Of a stretch of DNA of 8,266 bases, positions 3,000 through 8,266 are shown in pieces. This DNA comes from a virus. Taxonomy: Duplodnaviria > Heunggongvirae > Uroviricota > Caudoviricetes. Both the position numbers and the translations under genes were made by a program. The stretch lies in IMG/VR virus record IMGVR_UViG_2619619132_000010. One strand, 5' to 3'. The notes under the pieces were generated by a model that was not told the origin of the DNA, made no database searches, and saw nothing but the letters and a program-made list of their open reading frames with translations. Numbering within the stretch: the first letter of the stretch is position 1; every line of letters begins with the position of its first letter.

Positions 3000-3260
3000 T
3001 TACCGCACCTCCAGTCTCCATACCGCCTGACCAATCCGGCTGGCATAGGTATCTTTGGATACTGCTCCGTCTTTAGCCAGCTCCATAAGAATTTTGCGCA
3101 AATCTGCCGAACGCCATTCCTCATCAGGAAATTCCTTCTCCATTGCCAACCGCAGATTCCAGGTTGCTATCGTGAATGGATATTCCCCGCCGAGAGCTTT
3201 CTCTTGCAGGGCAGAACGGGAACGCATCACCTGCAAAACCTTCTCTTTTACATCCATCAT
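3000..3260 (-). CDS. Hypothetical 86-aa early accessory protein (Ea8.5 position)
   Basis: ORF MMDVKEKVLQVMRSRSALQEKALGGEYPFTIATWNLRL... with a strong SD AGGAGG 4 nt upstream of the ATG. The start overlaps the stop of the upstream 304-aa gene (ATGA). Confidence 0.6.
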   Translation of the reverse strand: MMDVKEKVLQVMRSRSALQEKALGGEYPFTIATWNLRLAMEKEFPDEEWRSADLRKILMELAKDGAVSKDTYASRIGQAVWRLEVR

Positions 3261-4171
3261 TTTGCCTCCTGCGGCGGTTCCGGTAGCGGCATCCAGTGAG
3301 TTACGTCATCCAAGATATTTCCTGATAAATATGTGAAAGCTCTATATTTTTTGTAATAAATTGGACTCATTACCCAGTTCCAATATGCTGCCACTATTTG
3401 ACCTTGACTAAATGCCAGTAACATTTTGGTGTCTTCCGGCATTCGCTCACTACAGCTTATCCAACCATCCGGAGTTACCGGAACTTGTGGAATGGCTGTC
3501 TGCTCTCGAACGTCATTAGGCGCTATAGGTTCTGCTGCCAACTGACTGGCATATTTGTTAATGGTAACGATAAGCTCTTGCTCAGCCTCATCCAGACAAT
3601 CACCGATACCTCGCCTGTCACCGTCAAAATCATCGAAATCGGCACGAATCCTGGCAACCTTCAGGATTGCGGACAACACCTCACTAGGAATTGCCGGATA
3701 GTTGGTTGACGTTTCCGCGATTTCCCGAAAATTATTGGTTGACGAATTCTTGTTTTCCCGAAAGTTTCCGGACTGAAGCATGGCGGCGCGGCAGGCGTTC
3801 CATATTTCGGCAGCAATATCGCGCTCGCTATCGGTTAATTTGTACGTTGAAACATAGCCAGAGAGCATTTCTACGTTTTCCGGAGTTGCTTCTTCAGGCA
3901 CTACCGGTGCTGGAGGGGCGGCGTAAATGCCCTCTATCACTAAATGTTTGCGCTCAAAATCATCTGGCTCTCGATGATATACGTAACTCCAATCACCAAG
4001 GTTATCATTGCGCCTGCAACGGAAACCTATCGGCTCTGCTTCCAGCGATGCCAGAGCAATTCGTGCCAGTTCTTCCGCTTCTTCTGCTGGCAGTACAACG
4101 TTGCTACCAGGTCCGTATGTTTCGCGCCACTGCCTGATTGTCAGCAGTCGCTCTTTGGTAATAGTGGTCAT
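3257..4171 (-). CDS. Phage accessory protein, 304 aa, with DUF551-like C-terminal domain and an internal 11-aa tandem repeat
   Basis: ATG at 4171 with AAGGA 7 nt upstream. The C-terminal region DGWISCSERMPEDT...WMPLPEPP resembles the DUF551 domain common in lambdoid Ea-region proteins. Internal repeat NFRENKNSSTN / NFREIAETSTN. Confidence 0.72.
   Translation of the reverse strand: MTTITKERLLTIRQWRETYGPGSNVVLPAEEAEELARIALASLEAEPIGFRCRRNDNLGDWSYVYHREPDDFERKHLVIEGIYAAPPAPVVPEEATPENVEMLSGYVSTYKLTDSERDIAAEIWNACRAAMLQSGNFRENKNSSTNNFREIAETSTNYPAIPSEVLSAILKVARIRADFDDFDGDRRGIGDCLDEAEQELIVTINKYASQLAAEPIAPNDVREQTAIPQVPVTPDGWISCSERMPEDTKMLLAFSQGQIVAAYWNWVMSPIYYKKYRAFTYLSGNILDDVTHWMPLPEPPQEAK
3702..3767. 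repeat. Imperfect 33-bp tandem duplication (2 units, about 25/33 identical) inside the 304-aa CDS
   Basis: TTGGTTGACG occurs at 3702-3711 and again at 3735-3744, and TTTCCCGAAA at 3721-3730 and 3754-3763, i.e. the same 33-bp spacing. In frame (11 codons per unit). Confidence 0.6.
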
Positions 4172-4181
4172 GTGTTAGTCC

Positions 4182-4445
4182 TTATCCTGCTGTACTTTCA
4201 ACTGATGAGGGGAATAAAATCTTTTCATCAAATCCGGCATTCATATCATGAACAGCAACACACCAATCCATTGACGAACGATTATCAAGAGCCTCCATGA
4301 TTTCATCCATGCGGCGCAGGTCATACAGGTAAATGCTTTTATCGCCAATGGTGTAAAAACCAATTTTTTTCGGTGATGGGCAGCGATCAAGAACGTCCTG
4401 TAATTCGTTCAACCATGCCCGTTCTTTTTTTGTTAAAGTTGCCAT
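4182..4445 (-). CDS. Hypothetical 87-aa protein
   Basis: ATG at 4445 (MATLTKKERAWLNELQDVLDRCP...) preceded by AGGAGAG. The six-frame track extends this ORF upstream to 4487, but the SD-supported ATG is at 4445, 1 nt after the Ea22-like stop. Confidence 0.6.
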   Translation of the reverse strand: MATLTKKERAWLNELQDVLDRCPSPKKIGFYTIGDKSIYLYDLRRMDEIMEALDNRSSMDWCVAVHDMNAGFDEKILFPSSVESTAG

Positions 4446-4446
4446 C

Positions 4447-4929
4447 TCACTCTCCTTTGATGCGAATGCCAGCGGCGCGGGAATCATTCCATCGCTTTAC
4501 TTCTTCACGAATTACGTCAATGCATTCTTTCGAATCCATTAGGTAATCTTCATCAAAAAGACGTTCCTGTTCGTTTTCTATCGCAACAATGATTGCTTCA
4601 ACTAACTTTTGTGCCTGAGAATCACTTTCTAACTCTGCTATGCGCTTACTTCCATCCGAGATAACGCCCTCGTAATACTCACGCTGCTCGTTGAGTTTTG
4701 ATTTTGTCTCCTCAAGCTCAACTCTCAGCTTCCCAACAGTAAGCGCAATATCCTCGTTCTCTTGGTCGCGGCGTTTGATGTATTGCTGGTTTCTTTCCCG
4801 TTCATCCAGCAGTGCCAGCACAACCTGAGGTGTGACTTTCATACGAAATGCCAGCAATTTTTGAGGCGTTGCTACTGTTTCAATTGCTACTGCTGCCTCA
4901 CGCAGTACCTGATAGTCAATCTTGCTCAC
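4447..4929 (-). CDS. Ea22-like early accessory protein (about 160 aa from the GTG start)
   Basis: The segment [37 protein letters not shown]...[14 protein letters not shown]...AGIRIKGE is recalled as lambda Ea22-like. Most likely start is GTG at 4929 with AGGAGG 6 nt upstream (MSKIDYQ...). The track's alternative start is 4950 (also GTG). Confidence 0.68.
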
Positions 4930-5093
4930 TGGTTGCCTCCTTTGCGCCACATCGCATTCAGATATTTGTTTTTATTCACTGAAGGAAAAGAATTTCTCTT
5001 AAGCAATTCCTCTCTCGATGGCATTGGCTTTACGCGTTGGCGAATAATCATTTCTGCCGGAAGAATGCCGGGATTGTATGCAAGACCTCTCAT
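4926..5093 (-). CDS. Hypothetical 55-aa protein
   Basis: ATG at 5093 overlaps the stop of the upstream 96-aa gene (ATGA), and its own TGA overlaps the GTG start of the Ea22-like gene (GTGA). Translation [55 protein letters not shown]. Not in the track. Confidence 0.45.
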
Positions 5094-5380
5094 GATTTAC
5101 TCTCCACGAACTGGTCAATAGCCATGCTAAGTGACACACCTAAAGTCTCGATATGCTGCTGAATATCCTGTAGCGTCTGCGCCTGAGATAACAGGATTTC
5201 ACGGTTGCATAACTCTTTAACTAGATGCTCAAACTTGCTGTAATAACCGATACGGCTTAGTGTTTCTTTCCCTGCATTATCACCTTCTTTGATAATTCCT
5301 CTTTCACTAAGAATCAGGTCGTGTTTGGTTACGGTAATAACGTATTTGCCGAGGTCGATGTTTAGCTTCATTGTTTTCAT
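5090..5380 (-). CDS. Hypothetical 96-aa protein (possible Abc-like accessory protein by position)
   Basis: ATG at 5380 ([17 protein letters not shown]...) with GAGGA 7 nt upstream. The track extends the ORF upstream to 5533, but that extension overlaps the preceding gene and lacks an SD. Confidence 0.6.
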
Positions 5381-5390
5381 TGTTAATTCC

Positions 5391-5687
5391 TCAGTCATTA
5401 CTGATAGCGCCATAACGAGAGCGATAATTACGCAGGCGCGGGTCGATATATTCAGGGAAGTGGGTATATGTGGCTTTGCGGAATGGTCGGATTGATGTCT
5501 GGTAAATTCGCTCGCGTTCTTCTTTCTCTGCAAGCCATATACAGTGGCGAAATTCCTTTTCCTCTTTCGTTTCCTGCGGTAGCGACATTATCCGATCGTA
5601 GTTTTTTCTGAATTTATCCAGCACCTCCGATACGGAATTGCCGGAACAGCGGCGCGCGTCATCCGCACCATACAGAGGCGCTGGCAT
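5391..5687 (-). CDS. Hypothetical 98-aa protein (possible Abc-like accessory protein by position)
   Basis: ATG at 5687 with AAGGA 7 nt upstream; translation MPAPLYGADDARRCSGNSVSEVLDKFRKNYDRIMSLPQETKEEKEF.... Lies 23 nt downstream of the ssb-like stop. Confidence 0.6.
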   Translation of the reverse strand: MPAPLYGADDARRCSGNSVSEVLDKFRKNYDRIMSLPQETKEEKEFRHCIWLAEKEERERIYQTSIRPFRKATYTHFPEYIDPRLRNYRSRYGAISND

Positions 5688-5710: not shown

Positions 5711-6094
5711 CTAGAAGGGAATTGAATCGTCGTATTCAGGATGATTTTGATGATTGCTACTTTGTTGCTGTTGGCTGTTTCCTGAAGTTGCAAATCCAAT
5801 CTTTGCATTCAGTAATTCAAGAGTGATTGATTGACCATTTTGCCCCTGATAAACATCAACCATGATGTTTTCTCCGGTAATTTCTACAATGCCACCTTCA
5901 ACAAGAACACTACGGTAGTAATCCGCTTGCGCTCCCGGCTTGGCAAATACAACGGCGCTGTAGTTTGTCCATTCTTTCTTTTTTGTCTGGCGATCGTAAT
6001 ACTGAACGCCAGCACGGATGTTGAATCCGATATTTTCCCCGGCCTGAAACTCTCTTGCGGGCTTGTTTAGTCTTACAGTAATCGAATGTGCCAT
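5711..6094 (-). CDS. ssb: Short phage single-stranded DNA-binding protein (SSB-like, 127 aa)
   Basis: C-terminal acidic tail ...EYDDSIPF matches the SSB-family DDDIPF-type tail, preceded by a Q/S/N-rich linker and an N-terminal domain of OB-fold size. Start ATG overlaps the erf stop (TAATG). Confidence 0.72.
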   Translation of the reverse strand: MAHSITVRLNKPAREFQAGENIGFNIRAGVQYYDRQTKKKEWTNYSAVVFAKPGAQADYYRSVLVEGGIVEITGENIMVDVYQGQNGQSITLELLNAKIGFATSGNSQQQQSSNHQNHPEYDDSIPF

Positions 6095-6699
6095 TAAGCA
6101 GCAGCTCCTTCTAATTCGTCTCGTCTGATGTTGTAAACGTCCTGCGCTTTGTGCTGCTCAGGTGTGCCTTCGAGCATCTTCCACGCTTTGGCGAACGCCT
6201 GTTTAAGCTCTTCTACGGTGTTTTTCTGCATTGCTGCGTCAGTGAATGCTTTTAGAACCTGTTCAGGTGTAGGTGATGGTTTTGATTGCTTTGCTGCTGC
6301 GTTCTGCTGATGTTTATGCTCGTCTGTATCTGCATCTTTCGCATCATCAATGCCGAACAAACCATTGAGGCAATACTTGCGTGCATAAGAGCTTGTAGCT
6401 CCCGTAACTTGTGCAGAATCCATTCCTTTCTTGCTTTCTTCCTCTCGTGCAAGAGCGGTTGCCGTATGGCTGTTTTCGCCATCGGTAATAGTTGCCGTGG
6501 CTTTCACGTAATACCGATCACCAATCAACACAACTTCATCGCTGATTGATAAAAACAGACCATTCAGTAACGGCTTAACGCCTTCAAGAATATCTTCGCA
6601 GCTTCTGTATTTATATTTACCGAATGAGTTGTACTGATTCTTTGGCGCGTTCAGATTCTCCTGAATAGCTGCCAGTCTTGCGTAAAATTCTTTGCTCAT
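6094..6699 (-). CDS. erf: Erf-family single-strand annealing recombinase (P22 Erf-like, 201 aa)
   Basis: MSKEFYARLAAIQENLNAPKNQYNSFGKYKYRSCEDILEGVKPLLNGLFLSISDEVVLIGDRYYVKATATITDGENSH... recognised as close to phage P22 Erf. Start taken as ATG at 6699; the track's 6729 start is a TTG extension. Confidence 0.9.
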   Translation of the reverse strand: MSKEFYARLAAIQENLNAPKNQYNSFGKYKYRSCEDILEGVKPLLNGLFLSISDEVVLIGDRYYVKATATITDGENSHTATALAREEESKKGMDSAQVTGATSSYARKYCLNGLFGIDDAKDADTDEHKHQQNAAAKQSKPSPTPEQVLKAFTDAAMQKNTVEELKQAFAKAWKMLEGTPEQHKAQDVYNIRRDELEGAAA

Positions 6700-6709
6700 A
6701 TGATTGTTC

Positions 6710-6880
6710 TCAGAATGGACACGGCCCAAGGAAATAACGCTGATTTAATACTTCGACTCGGGACAAATTAAGGCATACCCGCATTCCTTCACGATCTCCA
6801 TTCTGGCGATACATTAACGCCTGCTGCGTGTACATGCGTCTCTGTAACTTGCTCTCCTTCACTGTGGTTGCAAGTGACAT
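6710..6880 (-). CDS. Hypothetical 56-aa ORF just upstream of erf (arf-position candidate); overlaps the next ORF in another frame
   Basis: ATG at 6880 preceded by GGAG with 6-nt spacing; translation MSLATTVKESKLQRRMYTQQALMYRQNGDREGMRVCLNLSRVEVLNQRYFLGPCPF; TGA at 6712-6710, 10 nt before the erf ATG. Not in the track. Confidence 0.4.
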   Translation of the reverse strand: MSLATTVKESKLQRRMYTQQALMYRQNGDREGMRVCLNLSRVEVLNQRYFLGPCPF

Positions 6881-6959
6881 GAATATCTCCTTCGTTACCG
6901 ATTAATTCTTTCATCTGACGAATGAATTCTTCGTCTGACCAGTTATCTGTAAAACTCAT
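6789..6959 (-). CDS. Hypothetical 56-aa acidic protein, translationally coupled to the kil-like gene
   Basis: ATG at 6959 overlaps the kil-like stop (ATGA); translation MSFTDNWSDEEFIRQMKELIGNEGDIHVTCNHSEGEQVTETHVHAAGVNVSPEWRS. The track shows it with a GTG-extended start at 6974. Confidence 0.45.
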   Translation of the reverse strand: MSFTDNWSDEEFIRQMKELIGNEGDIHVTCNHSEGEQVTETHVHAAGVNVSPEWRS

Positions 6960-7108
6960 TTCCTGCGATACCACGGAAGGTTGATAGCTGATTTCATCGC
7001 TTTATTTGCTTCAAGCCACATTTTTGAATCACCAATAAATCTGGCTATTACTGCTTTGTTCTGTGCAGCACGAAGCATCTGGTGATTGATGGCTATTTCA
7101 TTGCGCAT
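6956..7108 (-). CDS. kil: Kil-like small protein (50 aa), candidate host cell-division (FtsZ) inhibitor
   Basis: Translation MRNEIAINHQMLRAAQNKAVIARFIGDSKMWLEANKAMKSAINLPWYRRK. The ARFIGDSKMW segment resembles recalled lambda Kil. GAGG 7 nt upstream of the ATG; the start lies inside the 3' end of the cIII-like gene, as for lambda cIII/kil. Confidence 0.55.
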   Translation of the reverse strand: MRNEIAINHQMLRAAQNKAVIARFIGDSKMWLEANKAMKSAINLPWYRRK

Positions 7109-7224
7109 AATAAGACCTCAACTCTTTTCCATCCGTCACGTAATTTACGGGTGATTCGTTCAAGTAAAGATTCATTTAATTGGAAGGCACCCATGCGAGC
7201 GCCTCCCGCGATTGCGTAAATCAT
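7093..7224 (-). CDS. cIII: CIII-like protein (43 aa), candidate FtsH-inhibiting regulator
   Basis: Translation MIYAIAGGARMGAFQLNESLLERITRKLRDGWKRVEVLLCAMK. The core ESLLERITRKLRDGWKR matches the recalled lambda CIII central helix. AAGGA 7 nt upstream of the ATG. Not in the track. Confidence 0.7.
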   Translation of the reverse strand: MIYAIAGGARMGAFQLNESLLERITRKLRDGWKRVEVLLCAMK

Positions 7225-7248: not shown

Positions 7249-8142
7249 TTAGTAGGTTATTTTTGTTGCGAATACTTCGCCTTTTACGATGGCTGTTATG
7301 ATATTTTTAGCAACATCTTCTGATGCACCAACCTTGATAAGGTCAGCAAGTATTTTGTTATTTACTTCTTTCCGGTGAGCTTTATCCTTTGCTCTACGCT
7401 CTTCTTCGTCCTTGATTCTTTTTTCTTCTGCTATTCTGGCTTGCTCTTTTGCTTCAGCTTCGCGCCGGATTCGTTCAGCCTCCTCCTGTGCTTTTCGGCG
7501 TTCTGCTTCAATTGCCGCCTGCTTTTCTCTTTCAGCTCGTTCTGCTGCCTCTTTTGCTTCGCGCTGTGCTCGTTGCTCGGCTTCAATGCGTTCACGCTCT
7601 GCACGTTCCGCTGCGGCCTTAGCTTCTGCTTCTCGCCTTGCTGCTGCTTCAATTTCGGCTTTTGCCTTTGCTTCGGCTTCTGCTCTGGCTTTCTCTTCAG
7701 CTTCTCTTTTTAAGCGTTCTTCATGCTCTCGCTTTTCCTGCTCCGCTTTGAGTCTTGCCTCTTCTCTTTTGCGGTCAAATTCGCGATCCATCAAAATCGC
7801 TATTTCATGGTCAGACTCAATTTGCTTTGCGAGAGCTTCAGCTGCTGCCTTAGCTTCTTCTTCGGCTTTAATCCGTGCCTGTTCCTCCTCATAATCAGTA
7901 AGAGGCTGGCGTGCCTTGGCTTTCAGTTCATCAAGGCGATCGCGCACTGTCTTGCGGTTGGCATCAATTAGCTTTGGAATTTCCTTCAGTTCAGCAACAA
8001 GGTCTTTGCCAAGACCATCGAGATATGTTTTCGTCTGCGCAACTTTATACGCCAGAGAAGCGATCTGAACCGCCCCGGGTTTCCTGGAGAGTGTTTTATC
8101 TGTGAACTCAGGCTGCCAGATCATCGTTTCCGATGGAAGCAT
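7249..8142 (-). CDS. Large charged low-complexity protein (E/A/K/R-rich predicted long helix), function unknown; 5' end uncertain
   Basis: Long minus-strand ORF with stop at 7251-7249. First in-frame ATGs are at 8142 and 8124, neither with a convincing SD. The central 500 nt or so encodes EAEAKAKAE / ERAERER-type repeats. Its 5' region overlaps the transposase C-terminus in another frame. Confidence 0.55.
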   Translation of the reverse strand: MLPSETMIWQPEFTDKTLSRKPGAVQIASLAYKVAQTKTYLDGLGKDLVAELKEIPKLIDANRKTVRDRLDELKAKARQPLTDYEEEQARIKAEEEAKAAAEALAKQIESDHEIAILMDREFDRKREEARLKAEQEKREHEERLKREAEEKARAEAEAKAKAEIEAAARREAEAKAAAERAERERIEAEQRAQREAKEAAERAEREKQAAIEAERRKAQEEAERIRREAEAKEQARIAEEKRIKDEEERRAKDKAHRKEVNNKILADLIKVGASEDVAKNIITAIVKGEVFATKITY

Positions 8143-8266
8143 AATAAGCTTTTTCTGCTTCTGCCGGAGGAGTATGGCCCAGCCTTTCCAGCAATCGTCG
8201 ATTGTTATACCAGTCCACCCACGTGAGTGTGGCCAGTTCCACTTCTGCACGGTTTTTCCAGCTCTT
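8108..8266 (-). mobile_element. C-terminal end of a DDE (rve-type) transposase, IS3-family-like; partial, runs off the window
   Basis: Minus-strand frame reads ...KSWKNRAEVELATLTWVDWYNNRRLLERLGHTPPAEAEKAYYASIGNDDLAA then TGA at 8110-8108. The W..WYN.RR...LG..P.E motif is typical of the C-terminal part of integrase-core transposases. Confidence 0.55.

Follow-up and report, generated by a model that had tools for sequence, protein, structure and literature searches.

A predicted Abc2 gene and four mosaic accessory genes in the early-left operon of an HK446-type lambdoid prophage

The virus record IMGVR_UViG_2619619132_000010 of IMG/VR (Caudoviricetes) was analysed as a stretch of 8,266 nucleotides (nt), referred to below as the window; the lambdoid prophage whose left arm it represents is inserted beside ybhC. 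The analysis concerns five consecutive genes on the minus strand, spanning positions 4182-5687 and designated A98, B96, C55, D160 and E87 after the lengths of their products (98, 96, 55, 160 and 87 amino acids, aa). The open reading frames (ORFs) have exactly the sizes given in a preliminary description of this DNA, and they lie where it placed them, in the early-left (PL) accessory region of a lambdoid phage, with a DUF551 gene on one side and an SSB-like gene and erf on the other (Table 1). Sequence comparisons clearly indicate that A98 is the anti-RecBCD protein Abc2, and the four genes downstream belong to catalogued families of accessory genes in lambdoid prophages.

Table 1. Features at and around the five-gene cluster, in the order of transcription
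Feature	Positions	Strand	Start	Product and supporting evidence
Coiled-coil gene	7249-8250	-		333 aa, Glu/Ala/Lys/Arg-rich; PGAP 'cell envelope biogenesis protein TolA'; phrog_21365/1376
cIII	7093-7224	-
kil	6956-7108	-		100% identical to HK446 kil
gp33 homologue	6792-6959	-		56 aa, acidic; homologue of HK446/HK75 Gp33, 94.6% identical to HK446 gp33; phrog_2123
erf	6094-6699	-	alternative start at 6729	Single-strand annealing protein; PF04404, E 2e-44
SSB-like gene	5711-6094	-		127 aa; phrog_44 'single strand DNA binding protein', E 2e-27
A98 (abc2)	5391-5687	-	ATG	98 aa, anti-RecBCD protein 2; Pfam PF11043, phrog_656, P22 and PDB matches
B96	5090-5380	-	ATG at 5380	96 aa, DUF5405 family protein; homologue of HK446 gp29, Sf6 gene 24 and P2 Orf83
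C55	4926-5093	-	ATG	55 aa, pI 11, DUF2737 family protein; homologue of P22 orf56, HK446 gp28 and HK97 gp38
Mosaic junction	4926-4950	-		oad2 cassette precisely absent; DNA alignment to HK446
D160	4447-4929	-	GTG at 4929	160 aa, Ead/Ea22-like protein; PF13935
E87	4182-4445	-	ATG at 4445	87 aa, acidic, phrog_1714 protein; no Pfam family
DUF551 gene	3257-4171	-		304 aa, EaA-like / DUF551 protein; PF04448, E 7e-22, residues 236-301; 27% identical to P22 EaA

The genes of the cluster are tightly packed. A98 and B96 are separated by 10 nt, B96 and C55 overlap by 4 nt (ATGA), as do C55 and D160 (GTGA), a single nucleotide separates D160 from E87, and 10 nt lie between E87 and the DUF551 gene. Shine-Dalgarno motifs of the GGAG/GAGG/AAGGA type precede all five starts, and the geometry of the junctions suggests that the genes are probably translationally coupled; a scan of the minus strand over 4182-5687 found no promoter-like and no terminator-like site, which fits a single polycistronic PL transcript. 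That some of these ORFs are chance reading frames might be supposed from their shortness and from the NCBIfam scan, in which none of the five had a match, this library holding no model for any of them. All five, however, match PHROG families (E 4e-32 to 2e-56), the matches to PHROG and Pfam families are full-length, and dN/dS (the ratio of non-synonymous to synonymous substitution rates) against homologues is 0.07-0.30 where measurable, far under 1, as expected for genes under purifying selection. In comparisons of B96 and E87 with their homologues in Klebsiella, Edwardsiella and Serratia, the synonymous sites are saturated and the proteins are 58-64% identical and of the same length, so that length is conserved across genera; ribosome-binding motifs, tight junctions and confident AlphaFold 2 (AF2) models of B96 and E87 argue in the same direction. 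The conservation data refute the chance-frame explanation, whose probability is practically nil, and the five ORFs are genuine genes. The families to which B96, C55, D160 and E87 belong are widely distributed.

Public databases already contain exact copies of all five protein sequences under the same names, and PGAP agrees with these names; Abc2 and E87 are each present on at least 1000 contigs, C55 on 410, D160 on 32 and B96 on 24. As a combination, the region is a rare mosaic, at least 80% of it being found in one place in one of 5426 complete E. coli genomes and parts of it in 3187. The Rfam scan of the window gave no match, the count of Chi sites in the window (none, with 0.15 expected) is uninformative, and PADLOC defence-system models matched none of the nine proteins scanned.

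A98 is identified by its sequence as Abc2, the hijacker of RecBCD, and no evidence contradicts this assignment. The Pfam search gave 203.6 bits for PF11043 (Anti-RecBCD_p2; cutoff 25, E 4e-61), with residues 1-98 aligned to profile positions 1-97; phrog_656 ('abc2 anti-RecBCD') was matched with an E-value of 2e-56, and the PDB entries 8B1T/8B1U were aligned end to end (E 2e-55). A98 shares 91.8% identity with P22 Abc2, with a dN/dS of 0.14; it keeps Pro68, the PpiB site, and within residues 1-70 only three residues are changed (P11A, L32R and A65S), all of them within the RecC-modelled part, 3-66. Its gene sits in the PL operon beside erf and the SSB-like gene, in a phage without Gam: no Gam/GamL Pfam match was found in any ORF between cIII and int. 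The preliminary description had likewise recognised no Gam and had expected an Abc-type anti-RecBCD function within the cluster; since A98 is, judged by homology, Abc2, this alternative function belongs to a known protein, encoded at the predicted place.

Abc2 has been studied by decades of genetics and biochemistry and by cryo-electron microscopy of its complex with RecBCD; it binds RecC, Pro68 and PpiB are involved, and the enzyme fails to respond to Chi (PMC9836394). The mechanism was shown for P22 Abc2, and at 92% identity the Abc2 of the window would be expected to bind RecC in the same way and to make RecBCD unresponsive to Chi. Abc2 would leave the RecBCD helicase running yet blind to Chi and, according to the model of Murphy, the ends of phage DNA would be resected to single strands by host RecBCD, rather than the phage DNA being destroyed; Erf, aided by the phage SSB, would then anneal the resected strands, RecBCD serving as a resection machine for Erf.

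Genes of the size of abc2 (97 aa, unannotated) are present in the recombination or accessory regions of prophages at the Klebsiella locus L007 (5688-5981), the Edwardsiella locus L004 (4016-4309) and the Serratia locus L006 (4547-4840), and in the Klebsiella and Edwardsiella prophages they directly follow a RecT or Gp157 gene. They were considered as divergent Abc2 genes in Klebsiella and Edwardsiella and rejected, as no similarity was found; possibly, they form another, uncharacterised recombination-associated family.

B96 is a member of the DUF5405 family (PF17399, 24.4 bits at a gathering threshold of 21.6) and is 34% identical (E 4e-17) to Orf83 of phage P2, which is annotated as DUF5405 in RefSeq. 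AF2 modelling (pLDDT 88) predicted a four-stranded beta-meander followed by a 47-residue helix, and a fold search with this model matched generic helices only. The DUF5405 cluster has 1193 members; homologues of B96 are found in a GamL/RecT Klebsiella prophage and, in P2, beside gene A, and in P22, HK620 and E. coli GB089 abc2 is directly followed by the DUF2737 gene, with no DUF5405 gene. Judged from these gene orders, the DUF5405 gene is a dispensable insert that separates abc2 from the homologue of orf56. Searches of PDB sequences, NCBIfam and PADLOC were empty for B96, C55 and E87, neither homology nor fold nor fusion gave a lead to a function, and literature searches for DUF5405, DUF2737 and P2 Orf83 yielded nothing informative.

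The preliminary description had likened the 98-aa and 96-aa ORFs to the P22 pair abc1/abc2, and half of this comparison stands, A98 being the predicted Abc2. For B96 to be the counterpart of Abc1, a second anti-RecBCD factor alongside Abc2, its length (96 against 94 aa) and its position adjoining abc2 would be suitable. Yet the best BLASTP alignment of B96 with Abc1 has an E-value of 4 over 8 residues, a tblastn search of the complete P22 genome with B96 gave no match, and the positions disagree, abc1 of P22 being flanked by erf and abc2 and the B96 gene following abc2. The predicted beta-meander with a long helix also differs from the helix-turn-helix reported for Abc1 by Silas et al. A close homologue of B96 (at least 60% identical) is encoded in only about 30 of 226 phage records that encode Abc2, and P2-like phages and the GamL/RecT Klebsiella prophage have homologues of B96 with no Abc2 gene in the stretches examined. 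Sequence, position and predicted fold all argue against B96 as Abc1, and this explanation, already largely refuted, is very improbable.

Another assignment for B96, a replication initiation protein, comes from the label of phrog_154, repeated in several RefSeq phage records. Against it, no initiator domain of Pfam or NCBIfam matched B96, PGAP names the protein only as 'DUF5405 family protein', lambdoid replication genes are located in the PR operon and not in PL, and many phages with Abc2 do without a DUF5405 gene. The P2 homologue, Orf83, lies beside the true initiator, gene A, and the RefSeq label sits on P2 Orf81, a protein unrelated to B96; the label on B96 therefore looks like annotation spillover, and an initiator function is hardly to be expected.

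The closest known relative of the whole arrangement is phage HK446, where the order gp33-erf-gp31-abc2-gp29-gp28-gp27(oad2) is found, as it also is in HK75, HK97 and HK022. The window has the same genes in the same order from kil through gp28, with protein identities of 94-100% (kil 100%, gp33 95%, Erf 100%, gp31 98%, Abc2 98%, gp29 98% and gp28 94%). C55, the counterpart of gp28, gave 108.9 bits against PF10930 (gathering threshold 25) and an E-value of 5e-37 against phrog_1117; it is 77% identical to P22 orf56, and its dN/dS is 0.12-0.30. Unlike HK446, the window is without the oad2 (anti-OLD) cassette, instead of which it contains a full-length Ea22-like gene (in HK446 only its first few codons are kept), E87 and the DUF551 gene; the integration module differs as well, the window having a lambda-type int/xis at ybhC.

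In the DNA alignment, the window tracks HK446 gp28 until ...ATGTGGCG, after which it has CAAAGGAGGCAACCAGTGAGCAAGATTGACTATCAGG, a sequence which in HK446 covers the 3' end of gp27 (oad2), extends beyond it and leads into the start of the Ea22-like gene. The oad2 cassette is a clean presence/absence polymorphism between the window and HK446: tblastn of HK446 gp27 against the window found nothing beyond an alignment at the shared junction (E 0.94), and no window protein is similar to Oad2 or EaE. The C-terminus of C55 (...WRKGGNQ) is the same as that of HK446 Oad2, and its orthologue gp28 has ...WRSGKK at this end. The 3' sequence in common, AAAGGAGGCAACCAGTGA (positions 4926-4950 of the window and 2536-2560 of the HK446 locus L011), carries the ribosome-binding site and the GTG start of the Ea22-like gene. 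From the alignment, AAAGGAGGCAACCAGTGA looks like a conserved recombination 'linker' for gain and loss of the oad2 cassette.

The Ea22-like gene that had already been recognised in the cluster is D160, which scores 97 bits against PF13935 (threshold 27). Its residues 1-103, comprising the N-terminal part and the coiled coil, are 73% identical to lambda Ea22, with no alignment further on, and its N-terminus is 52% identical to that of P22 EaD. The C-terminal domain (residues 104-160) is acidic, with a pI of 4.7; searched alone, it had no match in Pfam or PHROG, and a search of D160 against PDB gave no match either, so that homology to the solved C-terminal domain of lambda Ea22 was not found. 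A variable C-terminal domain and a mosaic pattern are typical of the Ea22 family (PMC10834534), and D160 is therefore still a member of it; by sequence, it is an Ea22 orthologue with a swapped C-terminal domain. Proteins of this family in lambda and Stx phages are tetrameric coiled-coil proteins that favour lysogeny via a host partner (PMC10834534, PMC7093339). In the fusion family phrog_368, one half is matched by D160 and the other by Oad2; D160 was also considered as an Ea22-Oad2 fusion, and this was rejected, as it does not align to HK446 gp27 or P22 EaE.

E87 belongs to a family of stand-alone proteins of about 85 aa that is found throughout Enterobacterales prophages. A profile search of 1.84 billion representatives gave 208 relatives, almost all of them stand-alone, and in the eight longer relatives that were scanned (P0271, P0274, P0285, P0303, P0304, P0355, P0371 and P0372) no Pfam domain was present. 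AF2 modelling predicted the fold of E87 with confidence, and no solved analogue was found for it. The family has an invariant RCPSP...GFYTIGD motif and a near-invariant C-terminal tail, FPSxVESTAG (residues 78-87), which is modelled with low confidence and is probably flexible; a partner protein of the host could recognise this tail as a short linear motif. In Edwardsiella and Serratia, homologues of E87 come after recombination modules of the RecT/YqaJ type.

The gene after E87 begins about 10 nt downstream in E. coli, in Edwardsiella (L004 6275-6694) and in Serratia (L006 6271-6708). The products of all three genes have a common N-terminal motif, ALAS(L/M)EAEP(V/I), and differ in the remainder, the DUF551 gene product being 35% identical to the Edwardsiella copy over about 100 aa. 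The shared motif suggests that E87 is passed on jointly with an N-terminal module of the EaA type.

Upstream of the cluster, Erf is 100% identical to HK446 gp32 when read from the ATG at 6699, and 75% identical to P22 Erf. The SSB-like protein is of the HK97-gp40/HK446-gp31 type (98.4% identical to HK446 gp31); its similarity to an SSB in PDB (7d8j) is marginal (E 0.058), it has no Pfam match, and its C-terminus, DDSIPF, resembles the protein-recruiting tail of bacterial SSB. Similarity was found neither to P22 Abc1 nor to the characterised SSB of HK620, and both of these identities were rejected for it. The gp33 homologue overlaps the stop codon of kil (ATGA), and a second 56-aa ORF in another frame (6710-6880, minus strand) shares 89 nt with the gp33 homologue and extends into the start region of erf; this ORF matches phrog_1723 ('recombinase') with an E-value of 4e-35 and is absent from the HK446 annotation. 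Both frames may be expressed, or one of them may be a recurrent mis-call.

The 5' end of the coiled-coil gene overlaps a fragment similar to the C-terminus of an insertion sequence (IS) transposase of the IS3 family (IS600-like; 8108-8242, minus strand), and the N-terminus of the coiled-coil protein is odd; in related genomes, IS600 is located at this position. An IS element has therefore probably interrupted the PL operon in its upstream part. At the other end, the DUF551 gene is followed by two small ORFs and then by lambda-type xis and int. Terminator-like hairpins are present on the coding strand, two at 2912-2963, upstream of the 55-aa ORF by xis, and one at its 3' end (2716-2735); they are probably terminators of the tL3/tI type, at which the accessory section of the PL operon ends.

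Comparisons with other phages place the cluster in a wider context. In P22 the order is erf-abc1-abc2-orf56-eaE...eaD...eaA, and the window has the same operon position and logic, including an EaA-like DUF551 gene downstream. It differs from P22 in being without abc1, arf and eaE, in having the SSB-like gene between erf and abc2 and the DUF5405 gene between abc2 and the orf56 homologue, and in E87, which is without a P22 counterpart; given the P22 order, the slot of abc1 is held here by the SSB-like gene. Recombination modules in which an annealing protein is combined with an SSB and Abc2 have been catalogued for lambdoid phages (PMC12315714, PMC5928155). The exo-xis region of lambda (orf60a, orf63, orf61, ea22 and ea8.5) occupies the equivalent position, from the recombination genes to xis, and shares with the window an Ea22-like gene; the 55-aa gene beside xis is placed as the 55-aa ORF of lambda (lambdap35), a likeness by position alone. 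Erf, SSB and Abc2 are found in place of Exo, Bet and Gam of lambda, and the Ea22 C-terminal domain differs; DUF1382 and DUF1317, the families of lambda orf63 and orf60a, had no Pfam match in the region scanned, the direct comparison with orf60a/61/63 being incomplete.

The likeness to P2 is limited to the early operon, where orf80-orf83 lie between genes B and A and Orf83 is homologous to B96. These four P2 genes are non-essential. The DUF5405 gene stands next to a TraR/DksA-like gene in P2 and two genes upstream of one in the Klebsiella lambdoid prophage; P2 differs in phage type and operon, and the window has no TraR-like gene. B96 and E87 are not tied to Abc2 or Gp33, because their homologues occur with other recombination modules and in P2.

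Taken together, the region is most probably (roughly nine chances in ten) the middle of the early-left operon of a lambdoid prophage of the HK446/HK97/HK022 type by ybhC, consisting of the last gene of the recombination module and four non-essential accessory genes. The module would comprise kil, gp33, erf, the SSB-like gene and abc2, and the DUF5405, DUF2737, Ea22-like and phrog_1714 genes would represent a mosaic 'ea / exo-xis' pool, co-transcribed and probably translationally coupled. The products of these four downstream genes are most likely small binders of host or defence proteins, by which early development is tuned; for B96, C55 and E87, host-protein-binding modulators of the ea/exo-xis type are our best guess. 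Several points weigh against this reading. Expression from PL and translational coupling are deduced from sequence features, and the modulator role of B96, C55 and E87 from where they lie, how small they are and what neighbouring genes are known to do, with no homology, fold match or fusion that backs a specific activity; the loading of Erf in the scheme for Abc2 is a model step still awaiting experiment (PMC9836394), and the data on OLD, Oad2 and Gp33 come from a preprint of July 2026, prior to peer review (bioRxiv 10.64898/2026.07.10.737580).

That preprint is of direct relevance to the anti-defence role proposed for the slot. It reports that Gp33 of HK75/HK446 alone triggers the abortive-infection nuclease OLD of P2, the authors suspecting a new manipulator of RecBCD, and that HK446 gp27 is Oad2, a relative of P22 EaE and a direct inhibitor of OLD; the oad2 locus is called 'a rich reservoir' of such genes (bioRxiv 10.64898/2026.07.10.737580). 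The suggestion that the slot hosts anti-defence genes is thus supported by experiment in HK446, with oad2 located immediately after the DUF2737 gene. Perhaps B96, C55, E87 and even the C-terminal domain of D160 are themselves uncharacterised anti-defence proteins, acting, for example, against the RecBCD-guarding OLD, the retrons Ec48/Se72 or Gabija set off by Abc2 or Gp33. The proven hotspot in HK446 is in favour of this, as is the view of Silas et al. that the neighbourhood of abc1/abc2 is an accessory region associated with counter-defence; the genes are also optional, cassette-like and mosaic, and E87 and the D160 C-terminal domain are acidic. Moreover, the prophage has the OLD trigger gp33 without oad2, and a substitute for oad2 would be advantageous because the one is kept and the other absent.

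Other observations point away from such a role. None of these proteins has sequence, profile or fold similarity to characterised anti-defence proteins, and the genes of this pool that have phenotypes, Ea22 and lambda orf60a/61/63, act on the lysis-lysogeny decision and not on defence (PMC7093339, PMC10834534). B96 homologues are encoded in the early replication operon of P2 and E87 homologues with every type of recombination module. The HK446 library screen for OLD inhibitors gave gp27 plasmids, the text of the preprint being silent on gp28 and gp29, which is a weak argument and concerns anti-OLD activity only. In the supplements of the accessory-gene screens of Silas et al., the one cluster protein present is a variant of Abc2, and B96, C55, D160 and E87 were not found. 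An anti-defence function for these proteins as a group is a possibility to be entertained only tentatively, and it is unlikely that at least one of B96, C55, E87 and the D160 C-terminal domain directly inhibits immunity that monitors RecBCD (OLD, retrons of the Ec48/Se72 type or Gabija-like systems) and so offsets the missing oad2. The reading as a recombination module followed by accessory modulators is preferred, with B96, C55 and E87 remaining reasonable, unproven candidates for anti-defence or host modulation.

The region is a hotspot of recombination and accessory genes of an ordinary kind that had been recognised before, and it contains no new system; the hotspot idea is sound and already published. 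One of its genes is fully characterised (abc2), one is in a partly characterised family (Ea22) and three are in known families without a function, so that the earlier description of the four ORFs other than the Ea22-like one as uncharacterised holds for the function of three, all of them in named families, and fails for the well-studied Abc2. The region mainly confirms textbook lambdoid biology, Erf, SSB and Abc2 replacing Exo, Bet and Gam, and the appearance of a 'hypothetical protein' in automatic annotation conceals a well-characterised hijacker of RecBCD. The gp33 homologue bears directly on the anti-RecBCD question, though it lies outside 4182-5687, and the locus as a whole is an experimentally validated hotspot of conflict between phage recombination functions and RecBCD-sensing immunity. 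The window provides a natural contrast with HK446, since gp33, erf, ssb, abc2, gp29 and gp28 are alike, oad2 is missing, and an Ea22 variant and E87 are added; three abundant families, DUF5405, DUF2737 and phrog_1714, are cheap and defined candidates for anti-defence or trigger screens.

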